Source: Euryarchaeota archaeon SCGC AAA252-I15 (GTDB taxonomy: Archaea; Altiarchaeota; Altiarchaeia; IMC4; SCGC-AAA252-I15). Taken from it: a DNA stretch of 64,000 bases. The stretch spans positions 31,780 through 95,779 of the forward strand of contig AQSC01000060.1 of assembly GCA_000402775.1 (NCBI GenBank). Reading direction: 5' to 3'. Below the pieces are notes generated by a model. That model was not told where the DNA came from. It made no database searches and saw only the letters and a list, made by a program, of their open reading frames with translations. The position numbers and the translations under genes are program-made. The number at the start of each line of letters is the position of its first letter. The first letter of the stretch is position 1. Shown piece by piece: positions 53,591 to 60,802 of this stretch.

Positions 53591-56500
53591 TTACATCCAG
53601 AGTATTAGCTTTGCTTTTATTGGCCCCCACAGACTTTGAACTCCCCCAGTCCTCCCAAATTCGAACTCTATCATAGATTGATCGAAAACCACGTCGACCC
53701 TACCGTCTGAGTCGACGTCAAGTTGCTTGAGAAGCCTTACCACAGAATCAGAGTAAGAGTCTTCTGGTGGATAAACTCCTGTGGAATTGATACTTGTATA
53801 ATAACACAACTCAGTACCATTATAGGATGTGGGGATTGGTGCATGCATTGTTGAACCGTCTTCAAAGTCGATTGTCCAATTGCATCCCTCGCTTTTTGAG
53901 AAAACATCCCCGTATCCCACAAGACGGGAGAGTTTTATTTTGTATATTACGCAGTCATCTGCACTGCAACCCGTGTGATTGGAAATGTTTAATCCCGTTT
54001 CCACTAAAACGGTGTTATTGATGCTTGAGGGGAGCATGTCGGCAGGGATGTTTACAATAAATGGGTCGCCGAGTATCTGATAGTTTGAGCCAAAGTGAGA
54101 ATCTCTTAGAGTGTATGCGTCTTCGAAACCAGAGCCGGAATCAACTCCCACGTAGTCGGTCCAGTATTCTGATGAGAAAGAGGTTACTTTCGCATCCACG
54201 ACATAAGTGCCTGAGGGCGTATAAAGGATTCCCGAACAGTCTACTGTGTCGTTGAATCGTTCAGTATTCATAGACAGGGTAATCTCACAGTAGCCCGTAG
54301 TGTTTACGGGGGTGTAATCGAATTTTATATAGGAGTCAGGATACAGAATCGATTCGTAGGTCATTGATATATTTATCGCCTGTGCCTGATAGACGGCCTC
54401 AATAATTTGGCTTGCTATTTCATCGTATATGTCTTCGAGTTCCTCTGGATTGTCTGAGACGTAATACGAGCCGTTTCCGCAAGTTGCGATACGCTGGAGT
54501 GTGTCCAAGCCCGCGTCACTTCCAAAGCCTACAGCGTGCACGGTTATGTTGTAGTCTTGGTGGGCTGTGCACGCAGACTGTATGGCGTCGTCTTTGGCAG
54601 TAATCTGACTGTCGCCGTCCAAGTCAGATTCTGCGTTACCGCATCGTACGTTGGCTTCCCCGTCCGTCATGGCAACAATAAACTTGAGTCTGGAGGCATT
54701 AGTCGCCTGAAATAGGGTTACCGCATCGTTTATCGCACAGCATATACACGTCTCCCCGCCGGCAAAATATGAGTTGATTTCCGATGAAAGAGAACCTGAA
54801 TCATTTGACAATGCATGGGTGCTGTATGAATCATCCCCGTAGGATACAAGCCCTATCATGTTACCGCTTATGTTAAGGATTCTCTCCGTGAACTCATCAT
54901 CTACCTGTTTAGCTAGTCCAACCCCTGTGAGATCGCATGCGAAACACTGTTTTGGGCAGTACAGGTGTTCTATCATCGGTAGACCGCCTAGGTCGTAGAT
55001 TGTGTGCTGGTGGACATAAGCCGGGTCACAGGCGTGGTGGGTGTCAAACCAACACGACGACCTGTCTAAGCTTGCGCAGCGGAACAGGCTGCACTGTCCT
55101 GGAGGGGCAGGTTCGGTCGGGTCGGCTGCTGTTCCGTTAACACCCCAGTAGGCGTAGACGTTTTCCCCGCAGGAGAGGGCGCACCACTCGTTAACTTCGT
55201 CTAACTCAAAGCAGTAAGTACACCCCAGGTTCGTACAGTCATAGCAGTAGGAGCCTCCAAAAGGGTTCCCAGCCGTATGATTTCCCTCACCCCCATACCA
55301 CTGGCACGTGTAGCAGGGGAGCGTGCAAACTGAGCCAGGATTCTGGCCGCAGCCGAAACTACGCCAACACCCGTATACACAATTACAGCATTCAGGGTAA
55401 CCCCCCGAGCAGTCGTTATAATGACATAGCAAACCGTCGTTTCTCACGCACTCGCTCGTGCACACCTGCGCGGCAATCGCCGTGTCGTTCATGGCTGGAT
55501 TGTCTCGGTCGTAGATCATATGCCAGCTACCTTCCATGCATCTGTCCTGCCACATACTGAAGGATAAGTCAGTAGTCAAAACGACATCAGCGTTACCTCC
55601 CTCAAATCCAATCGAAAGGTTTTGCGATCCAAGCCGTATTGGCGTAGTTGTCTGGCTTAACTCAGAGTAGGATAAAGAAGACAAGTTTTCGTCGTATAGG
55701 CTTGCGGAAAACTCACCCCCATTAAGCGTGTGATTAAAGACAACAGTGTCTCCGACAGTCAAGTAAGTCGTGTAATTACTCTTAAGGTGAAGGTAAACAG
55801 ACAGATTACTCAGCTGGCCCGGGACATAAAATGATGAATAATAGTTTACGAGACCGTAGATTCCGGGAAAAAAGTAGCTACCTGTACCAGTGTCTTGCAC
55901 AGTCTCCATGGAAGAAGTGTTGTAGGTGACTTTCACGAATCCACCGCCGATGTATTGGGTGCTCAAGTCCGATCCCGTAAACTTAAACTCAAGGACGTTG
56001 TCGCCGGAAGTAAATTGGTTTTCTGGGTTGGCTATGTGTGATTTTATGTTAGCTGACATACCATTGGAGGAGGGTGTATAAACTCCGGTCGAGTTATCGT
56101 TTACAAAAAGCTCGAATTCAGAGCCGGCATTCAATTCGAGGTAAGCTTGGATTATGGAGTCGATGTCATCGGGGAGTGTTATTTTTTTAGTGAGATTACC
56201 TTCACCTACGAACCCACCAAAAAACGCGTAAACCGAATTTGTCTTGGATTTAATGTTGGTTAGAAAAGCCCTGGAAACATCCCCTCTCGTGGGAAGACCC
56301 AACCCATAACCTACAAGAAGCCGGATTGAATTAGTCTTCGCAATAGACTTGGATTCCTCAGACCTCGAAATATTTTCAGCTAAAACATCATTCTCGATAT
56401 AGAACCGGTATCCCACATTAGGAGGTACGAGCTGTTCGAGGTAAAACTTGCTCAGATTAGCAGCATAAGTCCAATTCGCAGAGGAATTATCACCATCTGC

Positions 56501-56716
56501 AGAAGCCCAGGCAGCTCCAATCTCGTCTAAAATCTCTTTCTTGTTTAATACATCAAGACTATCCTCAGAGACATAGTGGAGTCTTTTAAAAGAGGATATA
56601 GAAGTGTCAGATGGTTTGTAGTGTATGGCACCCCACAGCCCTGCGAAAAGCATGACTGTAATGGTGAATGCGAAAAGCGAGTCCAATATGACAGTGTAAC
56701 CCTTGTTGTTTATCAC
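53591..56716 (-). CDS. Large secreted vWA-domain protein with a class III signal-peptide-like N-terminus and a Cys-rich insertion (1041 aa)
   Basis: GTG 56716 shares a GTGA overlap with the upstream stop and has GGAGGAG 5 nt upstream. N-terminus is MINNKGYTVILDSLFAFTITVMLFAGLW. vWA MIDAS motifs DLSFS, GGET and AMTDGEAN. About 28 N-X-S/T sequons. C-terminal DVDSDGRVD. Confidence 0.8.
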   Translation of the reverse strand: MINNKGYTVILDSLFAFTITVMLFAGLWGAIHYKPSDTSISSFKRLHYVSEDSLDVLNKKEILDEIGAAWASADGDNSSANWTYAANLSKFYLEQLVPPNVGYRFYIENDVLAENISRSEESKSIAKTNSIRLLVGYGLGLPTRGDVSRAFLTNIKSKTNSVYAFFGGFVGEGNLTKKITLPDDIDSIIQAYLELNAGSEFELFVNDNSTGVYTPSSNGMSANIKSHIANPENQFTSGDNVLEFKFTGSDLSTQYIGGGFVKVTYNTSSMETVQDTGTGSYFFPGIYGLVNYYSSFYVPGQLSNLSVYLHLKSNYTTYLTVGDTVVFNHTLNGGEFSASLYDENLSSLSYSELSQTTTPIRLGSQNLSIGFEGGNADVVLTTDLSFSMWQDRCMEGSWHMIYDRDNPAMNDTAIAAQVCTSECVRNDGLLCHYNDCSGGYPECCNCVYGCWRSFGCGQNPGSVCTLPCYTCQWYGGEGNHTAGNPFGGSYCYDCTNLGCTYCFELDEVNEWCALSCGENVYAYWGVNGTAADPTEPAPPGQCSLFRCASLDRSSCWFDTHHACDPAYVHQHTIYDLGGLPMIEHLYCPKQCFACDLTGVGLAKQVDDEFTERILNISGNMIGLVSYGDDSYSTHALSNDSGSLSSEINSYFAGGETCICCAINDAVTLFQATNASRLKFIVAMTDGEANVRCGNAESDLDGDSQITAKDDAIQSACTAHQDYNITVHAVGFGSDAGLDTLQRIATCGNGSYYVSDNPEELEDIYDEIASQIIEAVYQAQAINISMTYESILYPDSYIKFDYTPVNTTGYCEITLSMNTERFNDTVDCSGILYTPSGTYVVDAKVTSFSSEYWTDYVGVDSGSGFEDAYTLRDSHFGSNYQILGDPFIVNIPADMLPSSINNTVLVETGLNISNHTGCSADDCVIYKIKLSRLVGYGDVFSKSEGCNWTIDFEDGSTMHAPIPTSYNGTELCYYTSINSTGVYPPEDSYSDSVVRLLKQLDVDSDGRVDVVFDQSMIEFEFGRTGGVQSLWGPIKAKLILWM

Positions 56717-57279
56717 ATGAACTCCTCCGCTGAAGTATACCAGACTGTGAGAGCCGTTTTGACGATTTCCCCATCGAGGAGGGCGTTCCGTGTGACTGAT
56801 AGTAGTCGGGTCTGATTTTGGGGTGCCTTGCCTGTTGCAGGAAATACTCCGCCAATCGTAAGGTTTGAACCGTTTAAGTTGGTTATTAGGTAGTAAAAGT
56901 CGTAGCCCCCAAGTCCGAGTAGATAACGGTTGCACATGTAATTTGACAGTGAAATGTCGTTGCAGAGGCCATCATACTGTGAGTTATCGAAGAGTGTCAC
57001 AAAGCCCACAATCTTTTCACTGGATAGAATCCGGGATTCATTCACAAGACCCACAGATTCTATGTTACTAGTATTCCAGTTGCCTGGGATTCCTGAAGTT
57101 TTTACTAATTGTTCCGCAGCATCAACCGACCTTTCCTCCATAATCCGGTAGGATTCAGCTTCAGTCAGATCCCGCGTCGTATTATACCACAAGAGAACGC
57201 ACAAAATCAAAACTACCATAAAGATGAAGTAGGCTAGGAGAAACTCCCCCGAAAAAACCTGCGCCCTACGATTTATCAT
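56713..57279 (-). CDS. Class III signal peptide (archaeal type IV pilin-like) protein, 188 aa
   Basis: ATG 57279 (ATGA overlap with the upstream stop) gives MINRRAQVFSGEFLLAYFIFMVVLILCVLLW: a short charged N-terminus, a small residue, then a hydrophobic helix. Confidence 0.65.
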   Translation of the reverse strand: MINRRAQVFSGEFLLAYFIFMVVLILCVLLWYNTTRDLTEAESYRIMEERSVDAAEQLVKTSGIPGNWNTSNIESVGLVNESRILSSEKIVGFVTLFDNSQYDGLCNDISLSNYMCNRYLLGLGGYDFYYLITNLNGSNLTIGGVFPATGKAPQNQTRLLSVTRNALLDGEIVKTALTVWYTSAEEFM

Positions 57280-58004
57280 GCACCAATCACCCACGAAACA
57301 TTAAGAAAATTATCCGACTCGATGCCCTCATCAAGCTGCTCTATCGGATCGATCTCAAAGGGGAGAATGTGTGTTCCTACCGAAGGAACCGTAACATTGA
57401 AGAATACTGTCGTTTCAGCCTCAGCCTCAAGAGAAGGAACCACATCATCCAAAGAACCATTCAACCGCACTATAAAAGCTGAAGCGCGAACATGAGACTT
57501 GTCCCGCACTCTGACAGAAATCGTTGTGTTCGTCCCAGAAACATTCGAAGAGGAGCTAAAGCTTTCTCGCACGAAAAAAAGGTTGGGTTTGTGACAGGTT
57601 ACGATAACAGCATCCCCAGTATTCTCAATCCTATTTTGCAGGGTCTCCCCCTTATCCAGGCAATAAATCGTAACATTAGCTGCTAGAACCTGAGTCACCC
57701 ACTCTGAACCGTCAAAGTGAATCGAAAGAAAATTCTTGGAGGAAGAAACATTATAATCGACGGAACCGAAAAGATAATATGGAACCGAAACATACCTATA
57801 GTATCCGTAAGACTGTTGGCTGATGGTATTTATGTTGAATGCGATTGAATCAAGAACTGATTGCGCATCCATTGAAAGCTTGAGATTGTTTGCCAGAATA
57901 TTCTTTTCGAGGGCGAGGATTACAACGATTATGAAAATGAGAAGTATGAACCCGACTGTGATAATCAACTCTAAGCTAACCTGTCCCCTGGAAAAAAATC
58001 GCAT
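57276..58004 (-). CDS. Class III signal peptide (archaeal type IV pilin-like) protein with a CARDB-like C-terminal domain, 242 aa
   Basis: MRFFSRGQVSLELIITVGFILLIFIIVVILAL matches the archaeal prepilin pattern [KR]G-Q-[IV]-S-x-E. The C-terminus FNVTVPSVGTHILPFEIDPIEQLDEGIESDN resembles CARDB domains. Confidence 0.7.
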   Translation of the reverse strand: MRFFSRGQVSLELIITVGFILLIFIIVVILALEKNILANNLKLSMDAQSVLDSIAFNINTISQQSYGYYRYVSVPYYLFGSVDYNVSSSKNFLSIHFDGSEWVTQVLAANVTIYCLDKGETLQNRIENTGDAVIVTCHKPNLFFVRESFSSSSNVSGTNTTISVRVRDKSHVRASAFIVRLNGSLDDVVPSLEAEAETTVFFNVTVPSVGTHILPFEIDPIEQLDEGIESDNFLNVSWVIGA

Positions 58005-58048
58005 CGTATTAAAGAGATTATTTAATTTGCTTGATTAAATTAGTATTA

Positions 58049-60802
58049 ATGGGAAAAAACACGCTTCTACCCGTAATATTAATCCTATGCCTTACAGGAT
58101 ATTGTTCGGCTGATGGGGAAGATTGGCCCACATTCAAGCAGAATACTGGAAGAACCGGGTTTCAGCAAGGATATTCAAATTACTCACTGGAAGATATCAC
58201 CCTCATTTGGAATTATACTGTAGGATCTGCCGTGGAATCATCTCCCGTAGTATCCGATTTTGACGGCGACGGGAGATTAAATGTCGTGTTTGGATCAGAC
58301 GACGGCAACCTTTACTGCTTAGACTATCAGGGAAAAGAAATCTGGAATTACTCTGTAGGTGCGAGGATCAGGTCCACCCCAACACTTGCAGACCTAAACT
58401 TGGACGATAAGATAGAGGTTTTGTTTGGTGCTGACGACGGAGTACTCTACGTACTTGACGGCAATGGAAAACTCCTTTGGAGTTTTACGACAAATAAGTC
58501 AATACTGTCCTCACCTCTTGCAGCGAATTTCGACGACAGCAAAGATCTTGAAATCATAGTCACTTCAATGGACGGATTCGTTTACGCTCTAAATAGTAGG
58601 GGGGAATCCAAGTGGAGTTATGAGACAAGCGATTCCATAAGAACTAGTCCCGCAGTGGGGGATCCAAACGATGACGATAATTTTGATGTTATTTTCGGCT
58701 CCTCCAACAACGTCTTGTATGTTCTATCATATCCACCATACAGGATCTGGCAGTATCAGACGAACGGAAACATTTATGCGACTCCCGCAGTCGTCGATTA
58801 TGACAGAGACTACAAGGAAGAAATCATTCTAGCATCCTCCGACTCGGTAATCAAGCCAATTTACTGGGGGACTGCAATAAGCAGTGCCGGAAAGAGAAAA
58901 GTATGCAGGATTGTTGATTGGAGGGAAGTCTGCGAGTTCGTAACCCCCGCCTACTCTAAATTGTATGAAGAATGGAATTACACTACCTCGGGAAGCATTT
59001 ATTCATCCCCTTCTGTAGCTGACTTCACAGGTAATTCCAAACAGGATATCGTTTTTGGAACCGACAAACACACCCTCCACATTATAAACACTGAGGGACA
59101 GCGGATTGGAGGATACACTACAAACAAGGCCATTAAGTCCACTCCAGCAATAGCGGACTTGGACGGGGACGGTATACCAGAGATCATCTTCGGCTCTGAC
59201 GAAGGCATGGTTTACGTCATCGACTACCCGTACATTGCAAGCTTATCCACTATAGTCGCAAATCTTTCTTTTGAGGAACTCTACCTGGGGCTTTCGAAAC
59301 TTGGGGGAAAAGCAGAAGAGATGGCACTTGAAGTTGGAATAAACGAGACAGTTGAAACTGTTAGCGAACAAGAATGGAATATTCTGAAAACCCTGGATAA
59401 TAAGACTTTTAAGAAGGGTTCAATCAAGTACTTGGAGATGAATCGTAAAGTCGAAATTTCAGTTGGAGAGTCGAAAATAACCGTAGACGCAAGGAAGAAC
59501 GGAAACAACATCGTATTATTCAATTACCCCAATAAAAAAAGGTTCAGCTTTAAGACTGAAGGAACGGTTAGATCATCTCCCGCCATCGCAGACGTAAACA
59601 GTGACGGACACCTTGAATTCTTCGTGGGTTCGAGTGAGGGAGTACTCTGGGCTTTCGGAAGCCTGAAGGAATTTACGAGATCAGAGGCCGGAGACCTTCT
59701 TGATGAAGCTGAATACTTGTATAGCTTAGACGACTATAACGCAACCTACGAAACCACCATTAAAGCCCAAAACCTGTACGAGTCAATAGGCGACTCCCAA
59801 GGCATGTCGAGGGCACAGTCCATTCTCCTTCGGCTTGAAGCCGATGAAATTCTTGCCAAAGCATTAGACTTATACAACAAAAGCCTTATTGCAAACGCCT
59901 CAGACTACCTGGATCAAGCAGCAATGATCTATGCCAACATCAACTACACAAGATCCGGTGAAAACACAAGCAGGCTATCCGACCTCCTTGAAGCTGAATT
60001 ATATTACAGGGAGGCGAAGATGCTCTATAATACTGGAGACCTTGAAAACGCCTCAAGATACGTTTTGAAGGCTCACGAGATTTTCACGGCATACAACGAT
60101 ACGCGAGGGAAAAACAAGTCTACTATCCTCCTTGAACTCTCGGTAGAGCAAAAGGATGCTGACGCATACTATGTTTTAGCCTTAAACTTGTTTTTCGAGG
60201 AAGGCTACAGCGAGAACGTGACTGAATACTTGAACATCGCGAAACTAGTATACGAGGACGTTAACGCCTCAGGGGGTGTGGTTTTAGTTGAGAAGATGCT
60301 TTCAAGGGTGATCGCAACCAAACTCACAGACAATGCATACGAGATGTATGAGCAAGGCAATATTGAAGGCGCCTTTGAAGCTTCCCTAAATGCAAGCAAG
60401 ATTTTTTCAAGCATAAATTATGCGCCAGGACTCTACAGGGCAGAGTCTATGGCAAACAAGACCGGCCAGTTCATAAAGGCAAGCCAGTTATTCGAGCAAT
60501 CAGTAAGCCTTTATTCAAACAAGCAATACGCTCAAGCCATCGACATCGCAGAGAAATCGAGGGAAATCTATGATAAATTCAACGACACCGCATCCCGAGA
60601 GGAAGTGGATAAATTCATCGAAAAGATGAGGGAACAATACTTCGAGAAAGTGAAAAAACCAAAATACTTGATCATATTATTGAACATAATGGTGGGCGCA
60701 ATCGCGGGAATAATGCTTATATACTCGATTGAAAAGCTTCTGAAAAACAAACGCGGGAAAATCGAGGAAAAAGAGACTGCGACACCTCCATGGAGGTATT
60801 AG
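58049..60802 (+). CDS. Secreted beta-propeller (PQQ/FG-GAP-like repeats) + helical-repeat protein with a C-terminal TM anchor
   Basis: ATG 58049 gives the signal peptide MGKNTLLPVILILCLTGYCSADG. Repeats of SSPxxxDxDGDGxxEIxFGSDDGxLYxLD. Then six TPR-like units of about 52 aa. The C-terminal TM segment YLIILLNIMVGAIAGIMLIYSI is followed by a basic tail. Confidence 0.75.
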   Translation: MGKNTLLPVILILCLTGYCSADGEDWPTFKQNTGRTGFQQGYSNYSLEDITLIWNYTVGSAVESSPVVSDFDGDGRLNVVFGSDDGNLYCLDYQGKEIWNYSVGARIRSTPTLADLNLDDKIEVLFGADDGVLYVLDGNGKLLWSFTTNKSILSSPLAANFDDSKDLEIIVTSMDGFVYALNSRGESKWSYETSDSIRTSPAVGDPNDDDNFDVIFGSSNNVLYVLSYPPYRIWQYQTNGNIYATPAVVDYDRDYKEEIILASSDSVIKPIYWGTAISSAGKRKVCRIVDWREVCEFVTPAYSKLYEEWNYTTSGSIYSSPSVADFTGNSKQDIVFGTDKHTLHIINTEGQRIGGYTTNKAIKSTPAIADLDGDGIPEIIFGSDEGMVYVIDYPYIASLSTIVANLSFEELYLGLSKLGGKAEEMALEVGINETVETVSEQEWNILKTLDNKTFKKGSIKYLEMNRKVEISVGESKITVDARKNGNNIVLFNYPNKKRFSFKTEGTVRSSPAIADVNSDGHLEFFVGSSEGVLWAFGSLKEFTRSEAGDLLDEAEYLYSLDDYNATYETTIKAQNLYESIGDSQGMSRAQSILLRLEADEILAKALDLYNKSLIANASDYLDQAAMIYANINYTRSGENTSRLSDLLEAELYYREAKMLYNTGDLENASRYVLKAHEIFTAYNDTRGKNKSTILLELSVEQKDADAYYVLALNLFFEEGYSENVTEYLNIAKLVYEDVNASGGVVLVEKMLSRVIATKLTDNAYEMYEQGNIEGAFEASLNASKIFSSINYAPGLYRAESMANKTGQFIKASQLFEQSVSLYSNKQYAQAIDIAEKSREIYDKFNDTASREEVDKFIEKMREQYFEKVKKPKYLIILLNIMVGAIAGIMLIYSIEKLLKNKRGKIEEKETATPPWRY

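Follow-up and report, generated by a model that had tools for sequence, protein, structure and literature searches.

A 26-cysteine module splits the von Willebrand factor A domain of a putative type IV pilus-associated adhesin from an Altiarchaeota archaeon

The DNA analysed here, referred to as the window, is a 64,000-nucleotide stretch of contig AQSC01000060.1 from the Altiarchaeota archaeon SCGC AAA252-I15. Its minus strand encodes a 1041-aa protein, P0001, whose von Willebrand factor A (vWA) domain is interrupted by a cysteine-rich insert directly after the DxSxS motif of the metal ion-dependent adhesion site (MIDAS). The GTG start codon of the gene is preceded by GGAGG, with a 4-nt overlap between this start and the stop of the preceding gene. 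P0001 is single copy in its genome, where a search for paralogues returned none. In window coordinates, the gene and the parts of its product are:

53591-56716, minus strand: gene of the vWA protein P0001, 1041 aa (GTG start at 56716, stop codon 53591-53593)
56621-56716, minus strand: residues 1-32, class III (prepilin-like) signal peptide and hydrophobic helix, VINNKG followed by YTVILDSLFAFTITVMLFAGLWG
55592-56620, minus strand: residues 33-375, conserved N module of three helices and then a beta-rich domain; predicted local distance difference test (pLDDT) score mostly 84-97 in the AlphaFold2 (AF2) model
55541-55591, minus strand: residues 376-392, vWA strand beta-1 and MIDAS loop 1
55556-55570, minus strand: DxSxS motif, D383-S387 (D383-L-S385-F-S387)
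54935-55540, minus strand: residues 393-594, cysteine-rich insert, 202 aa with 26 Cys
54956-55219, minus strand: residues ~500-587, beta-rich sub-domain of the insert, confidently predicted by AF2
54392-54934, minus strand: residues 595-775, remainder of the vWA domain, alpha-1 to alpha-6 (Pfam VWA, AF2 order, Foldseek)
54749-54751, minus strand: MIDAS residue T656
54662-54664, minus strand: MIDAS residue D685
53594-54391, minus strand: residues 776-1041, conserved beta-rich C module

Translation of positions 54935-55540 on the minus strand yields exactly 202 residues, 26 of which are cysteines (12.9%), compared to 12 cysteines among the other 839 residues of the protein (1.4%). This agrees with the initial annotation of this DNA, which described an insert of about 200 residues and 26 Cys at these positions and quoted sequence motifs that are all present in the translation; the residue numbers it gave (466-667) hold for the 1114-aa open reading frame and become 393-594 in the 1041-aa protein. 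The insert begins 5 residues past DxSxS and stops just short of helix alpha-1, which starts at about residue 598. The Pfam VWA profile (PF00092) scores 42.2 bits against a cut-off of 23.8 and covers only residues 618-765, corresponding to profile positions 37-173, while the first ~36 profile positions sit across the insert from this match. Because the match is confined to residues that follow the insert, beta-1 and the MIDAS loop are cut off from the remainder of this domain. The MIDAS itself is complete and in canonical order (D383, S385, S387, T656, and D685), and its residues are invariant in an alignment of 31 sequences and at least 90% conserved, some of them invariant, in alignments of 79 and 144 sequences.

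The arrangement predicted for the whole protein by AF2 from the 79-sequence alignment (mean pLDDT 85.2, predicted template modelling score 0.60) begins with a helix at residues 5-32, followed by three further helices, a beta-rich N module extending to residue 365, beta-1 (376-383), the insert, the remaining vWA elements in canonical order from alpha-1 (598-614) to alpha-6 (757-775) at high pLDDT, and a beta-rich C module. When this model was compared to known structures with Foldseek, vWA domains were recovered, including those of the pilus adhesins PilB (7b7p), SpaC (6m48), Mfa5 (6tnj), and PitA (7w6b) (E ~1e-8 to 4e-7), and template modelling scores, normalised to the target, were 0.64-0.69 for compact vWA domains. 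Additionally, the family member P0067, whose loop is 7 residues long, has a contiguous vWA domain (VWA_2 profile positions 2-52 on residues 385-434). Taken together, the predicted order of elements, the Foldseek matches, and the contiguous domain of P0067 indicate that both flanks of the insert are predicted to form one alpha/beta (Rossmann-like) vWA fold, and the partial Pfam match and AF2 order bear out the earlier claim that the domain is split right after DxSxS.

The vWA core contains cysteines of its own near the metal site. Three of them directly follow the MIDAS threonine (GGET-C-I-C-C, residues 657-660, window positions ~54737-54748) and are kept in most of the family; the alignments of 31 and 79 sequences both show C657 and C660 to be at least 90% conserved. 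Adding C692, C716, and C746 brings the core set to an even 6, and these residues may form core disulfides.

Two homologue searches returned a large family of at least 171 protein clusters (90% identity) in Altiarchaeota and DPANN; where members are named, they are assigned to Candidatus Altiarchaeota or to the DPANN lineages Nano-, Pace-, Woese-, and Aenigmarchaeota. The cysteine-rich module was found in 11 family members, comprising P0001 and 10 further proteins from independent assemblies, in frame and at 35-74% identity. Within the clade closest to P0001, inserts are 57-74% identical to the window copy, compared to 44-69% for the N and C modules, while in the more distant clade identity outside of the cysteines falls to ~30% and the cysteine framework is kept. 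Fourteen cysteine columns are invariant across the 11 sequences and another 4 are absent from just one of them, with C516, C542, C547, C555, C563, and C587 being the invariant cysteines within the beta-rich sub-domain. Conservation also extends to the motifs CWxSxGC, PCYxC, YxGVNGT, CSLYxC, and CDxxYV and to aromatic and glycine motifs, whereas P0010 and P0012 can do without the first 35-50 insert residues. The module is rare, occurring in 5 of 41 genomes (its own and 4 of 40 relatives from its order).

A profile built from the 11 inserts and searched against 1.84e9 representative proteins recovered three clusters, all from the same family, and one protein that was judged to be spurious: P0156, a 3565-aa repeat protein with features of the Bacteroidota surface-adhesin type that matched in 10 weak stretches. 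Searched alone, the insert has no Pfam or NCBIfam match at E<=0.1, including to zinc-ribbon or ferredoxin families, to which PDB searches likewise found no similarity. Its best matches were to unrelated aminotransferases among PDB sequences (E=0.55) and at E=1.6 with Foldseek, for which half of the insert model was of low confidence. Comparing the N-terminal half of the insert to its C-terminal half with hhalign (probability ~1%) revealed no internal repeats. The initial annotation held that the insert resembles no cysteine-rich domain that can be named, and these searches of Pfam, NCBIfam, PDB, and Foldseek concur, finding no known cysteine-rich family (EGF, TNFR, zinc ribbon, ferredoxin type, or others) by sequence or fold. 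None of the three outcomes that the initial annotation had named as counting against its reading was observed: the insert matched no known repeat family, with 11 carriers and 14 invariant cysteines it is not a poorly conserved stretch of low complexity, and its flanks are predicted to form a single vWA domain. Structure prediction for the insert, which had been proposed there, succeeded for its second half and not for its first: residues ~485-594 are modelled as a beta-rich sub-domain at pLDDT 72-92 in the whole protein, and insert residues 108-195 reach pLDDT 75-95 when the insert is modelled alone.

In the alignment of 144 family members, DxSxSM and alpha-1 are 0 to 878 residues apart. The common form of the intervening segment is ~30 residues long, with one cysteine in the loop and one in alpha-1 (SLAKC), and DPANN members often have a 36-residue loop with 6 Cys. 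Far larger modules are found at the same site in other paralogues: P0086 carries five FG-GAP repeats (338 aa), probably a propeller, and P0091 and P0112 carry an 877-aa insert with 46-48 Cys and a ConA-like lectin / 3-keto-disaccharide-hydrolase domain, within which hmmsearch found no significant match to the 26-Cys module. As judged from these sequences, the beta-1/alpha-1 loop clearly appears to serve as a family-wide socket for exchangeable modules.

Short-loop paralogues such as P0045 (2 Cys), P0013 (6 Cys), and P0097 (10 Cys), with loops of 25-87 residues over residues 381-612, share with P0001 the scaffold, the insertion site, and an even cysteine count; in addition, their first cysteine lies 3-4 residues past DxSxSM and their last lies just before or within alpha-1. 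They differ in that no profile homology to the 202-aa module was detected (hmmsearch E>0.4). An origin of the module by expansion of a short loop was considered and rejected: since hhalign returned a probability of ~1% for the insert against the 6-Cys and the 8-10-Cys loops, the link between the insert and short loops is positional only. The N module was found in all family members, including those that lack a vWA domain. As such members (P0117, P0134, P0125, and P0128, ~640-656 aa) keep both the N and C modules, the vWA domain itself looks like an insertion into an older scaffold made up of these two modules.

Two other vWA loops in the family also take inserts, one around residues 671-685 and one after D685 (685-711), reaching up to 856 and 316 residues, respectively. 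In proteins with the larger inserts at these positions, Pfam matches include CUB, Laminin_G_3, BetaGal jelly roll, and BNR.

The cysteines of the insert occur in even numbers in all 11 carriers (26, 26, 26, 24, 24, 24, 24, 26, 18, 20, and 26). In the family as a whole, 132 of 136 members carry an even number of cysteines between beta-1 and alpha-1, with counts spanning 0-48, and even counts are likewise seen for the vWA domain plus inserts in 122 of 136 and for the C module in 124 of 136; as the sequences are related to one another, these statistics overstate the independence of the observations. An even cysteine count is reportedly an established signature for predicting disulfide-bonded exported proteins. 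Individual pairs also change together: C393 and C594, the first and last cysteines of the insert, are jointly lost only in P0010, C436 and C444 are jointly present only in P0001, P0003, and P0004, C502 and C512 are jointly lost in P0010 and P0011, and C491 and C591 are jointly lost in P0011 and P0012. The CxxC neighbours C591, C499, and C494 are able to stay when the distant pair changes. Because it is distant cysteines that change together, they are expected to be disulfide partners rather than parts of metal knuckles, and even parity and co-variation favour disulfides over metal sites. The initial annotation had suggested a disulfide-knotted or metal-cluster-binding module and proposed analysing cysteine conservation in homologues; with 14 invariant columns, even counts throughout, and four co-varying pairs, this analysis lends weight to the disulfide half of that suggestion and disfavours the metal-cluster half.

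The vWA gene is the last of three overlapping operon genes, which are translationally coupled and all encode class III-like N-termini. The two genes that precede it are:

56713-57279, minus strand: upstream gene, 188 aa, class III signal peptide (MINRRAQVFSGEF...), no Pfam match
57276-58004, minus strand: first gene of the operon, 242 aa, class III signal peptide (MRFFSRGQVSLE...), CARDB domain (E=1.5e-6)

In P0001, the KG motif of the signal peptide and D12 are at least 90% conserved family-wide, and the AF2 helix at residues 5-32 coincides with this region. At the locus of a homologue (L002, the contig of P0006), two small genes, placed as in the window, and the vWA gene are followed by genes for a Big_7 protein, a DUF2226 protein, a T2SSE ATPase, and two T2SSF platform proteins. 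Small genes and a vWA gene are also found at the locus of P0008 (L004), followed only by a Big_7 gene, and no T2SSE or T2SSF gene is annotated at a DPANN locus (L003). The genome of P0001 encodes a T2SSE ATPase on a separate contig (C58), and the prepilin peptidase family Peptidase_A24 is present in 18 of 21 genomes (its own and 20 relatives). P0001 contains 29 N-X-S/T sequons where ~11.6 are expected (2.5-fold), including a conserved N527-G-T sequon inside of the insert; such an excess is typical of archaeal surface glycoproteins. P0001 is almost certainly extracellular, as had been supposed at the outset. Large adhesin-like proteins that bear a class III signal peptide appear in excerpts of surveys on archaeal type IV filaments; these excerpts do not describe this vWA family.

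Divergent from the operon, a gene at 58031-60802 (plus strand) encodes a 923-aa protein that combines helical repeats with a beta-propeller of the FG-GAP/PQQ-like type and has a transmembrane segment at its C-terminus. The repeats inserted in the vWA loop of the paralogue P0086 are of the same FG-GAP type.

The closest characterised analogue of P0001 is PilB of Streptococcus sanguinis, a modular (bimodular) type IV pilin whose vWA MIDAS is, according to an excerpt of its description, flanked by two arms as in RrgA (PMC8179133). Each of the two joins a vWA domain to a pilin-like N-terminus that starts with a class III signal peptide, and the MIDAS of PilB is functional. In PilB, arms protrude beside the MIDAS, and its gene lies in a type IV pilus locus (PMC8179133, excerpt). 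PilB was recovered with the whole-protein model at E=3.1e-8, with an identity of only ~12% in the structural alignment, and no significant match between the two was found at the sequence level. PilB differs in being bacterial, ~420 residues long, and equipped with short arms that the excerpted text does not describe as cysteine-rich (PMC8179133). P0001, in contrast, has additional N (~340 aa) and C (~265 aa) modules, and its arm is a 202-aa, 26-Cys domain directly after DxSxS.

A vWA/MIDAS head at the pilus is also found in RrgA of S. pneumoniae, SpaC, and PitA of sortase pili and in Mfa5 of type V pili. RrgA has inserted arms around its MIDAS, as excerpted in PMC8179133, and was not itself among the structural matches, which did include SpaC, PitA, and Mfa5. 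All four differ from P0001 in that they belong to unrelated assembly machineries (sortase or type V) and their inserts are neither cysteine-rich nor related in sequence. With regard to a cysteine-stapled loop beside a MIDAS, the closest functional analogue would be the specificity-determining loop of the integrin beta I-like domain, a disulfide-stapled insertion in a vWA-type domain that contributes to ligand specificity. This is by analogy only, as the integrin loop is ~30 residues long, has one disulfide, occupies another loop of the fold, and is eukaryotic.

We propose, with a probability of roughly 0.6, that P0001 is a vWA adhesin associated with a type IV pilus and that the lineage-restricted module in its MIDAS loop, of unassigned fold, is stapled by disulfides and acts as a ligand-defining arm. 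P0001 would be a large, modular, pilin-like adhesin on the type IV pilus of this Altiarchaeota archaeon. From vWA topology, the beta-1/alpha-1 loop that bears DxSxS is expected to open onto the metal- and ligand-binding face; to our knowledge, every vWA domain characterised so far has this loop on its ligand face. All 26 cysteines of the insert would be paired in ~13 disulfides, one of which, C393-C594, would act as a staple that holds both insert ends close to each other at the MIDAS loop. The module would then be a rigid, protease-resistant, glycosylated arm or cap beside the MIDAS and would determine what is bound by the vWA head on the pilus. Such a role in ligand specificity is proposed by analogy, drawing on vWA topology, the arms of RrgA and PilB, and the lectin and FG-GAP domains found at the same site in paralogues.

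Several observations weigh against this proposal, among them the relatedness of the sequences behind the parity counts. Residues ~400-480 of the insert are modelled at pLDDT 42-67, and the model of the insert alone has a mean pLDDT of 61. The window operon, unlike locus L002, has no adjacent ATPase or platform genes, and Peptidase_A24 was not found in the P0001 genome, which is 57% complete. Monophyly of the insert carriers was rejected, as the scaffold tree places the module in two non-sister clades; its history involves either loss, or exchange or transfer. Furthermore, Altiarchaeota are known from anoxic, reducing habitats, and VKOR (PF07884) was above cut-off in none of 21 genomes (the P0001 genome and 20 relatives) in a search that did not include DsbA/DsbB. 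With no VKOR in these genomes, the oxidant and the catalyst for 13 disulfides are unexplained.

These last points lend themselves to a different reading, in which the thiolates of the insert coordinate a metal (zinc, an Fe-S cluster, or another thiophilic metal) rather than form disulfides, serving either a structural, zinc-knuckle-like role or the binding of metals or metal-sulfide surfaces. The lack of VKOR among genomes of the order and the anoxic, reducing habitats of the lineage would fit such chemistry, as would the dense Cx2C, Cx3C, and CxC spacings and the conserved histidines beside cysteines (a CHY motif at C431-H432, and H571 in YVHxH). Nevertheless, we regard metal coordination as unlikely. 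The counts of 18, 20, 24, and 26 are always even and are not all multiples of 4, and where a CxxC motif loses one cysteine it is a distant one that compensates (C594 with C393, C502 with C512, and C591 with C491). The 132 of 136 even loops include the common 2-Cys form, which is incapable of making a metal site, and the insert is without similarity to zinc-ribbon or ferredoxin families. Pre-assembled Fe-S clusters are further disfavoured, since a protein with a class III signal peptide is expected to pass through Sec in the unfolded state. A more radical alternative, that the segment is no real domain at all and instead represents filler of low complexity, an artefact of assembly or of a frameshift, or a selfish element like an intein, draws on base composition: the GC content at third codon positions (GC3) is 0.64 in the insert, compared to 0.47-0.51 in the rest of the gene. 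Overall GC in this genome is 0.558 for the insert, and the N and C modules have a GC of ~0.44 and a GC3 of ~0.47. No such contrast between the insert and the rest was found in the homologue at L002, and the same-genus orthologue at L006 has a GC of 0.53-0.585 over its full length. A recent foreign origin of the insert was weighed on account of this GC3 difference, and the vWA/insert segment may have a mosaic or recombinant history. The conservation of the module across homologues, where it is read without a break in P0001 and recurs in the matching frame in 10 other, independently assembled proteins, refutes the artefact explanation, to which we give almost no credence. The invariant cysteines and the aromatic and glycine motifs likewise argue against it, as does the lack of internal repeats, and an intein or other mobile insertion was rejected as there are no intein motifs or Pfam matches and the segment ends in CFAC-D rather than in HN-C/S/T.

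If the insert is disulfide-rich, it need not recognise a ligand. It could instead be a brace, a shield against proteases or redox damage, a spacer, or a lid that occludes the MIDAS and regulates access to it, with ligands bound at the MIDAS itself or through the N and C modules. These two modules are universal in the family and persist in the vWA-less P0117, P0134, P0125, and P0128, and the insert matches the vWA core in conservation and lacks the hypervariability of many receptor-binding tips. A purely structural or shielding role is nonetheless improbable in our view. Paralogues carry recognisable binding modules, namely the ConA-like lectin and the FG-GAP repeats, at the very same site, and the MIDAS of PilB is flanked by arms (PMC8179133). 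The ligand-defining arm proposed above also accords with the general position of the DxSxS loop on the ligand face of characterised vWA domains.

Arms around the MIDAS are already known for vWA pilus adhesins of bacteria, as exemplified by RrgA and PilB. The portions of the literature covered here, including excerpts of archaeal type IV pilus surveys, contain neither an equivalent archaeal family nor a 26-Cys domain in a MIDAS loop. A bolder and rather doubtful version of our proposal is that the module represents a new fold with ~13 disulfides in 200 residues, exported by anaerobes that lack VKOR, and that this archaeal pilin family uses vWA MIDAS loops as a plug-in socket for cysteine-rich, FG-GAP, and ConA-like modules. 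Should the module be disulfide-bonded, the question becomes how anaerobic archaea without VKOR oxidise their exported proteins, and one implication would be an unrecognised route of extracellular thiol oxidation in Altiarchaeota and DPANN. Alternatively, if its thiols stay reduced, the pilus head would offer a thiol-based grip for metal-sulfide minerals or metal ions. The module may be a new small-domain fold that is useful as a stable scaffold, and even if it proves to be ordinary, it would still be a well-delimited target for structural genomics. Of wider interest is the plug-in architecture of this uncharacterised family of archaeal adhesins, in lineages (Altiarchaeota and DPANN) in whose ecology attachment to surfaces or to host cells plays a central part.

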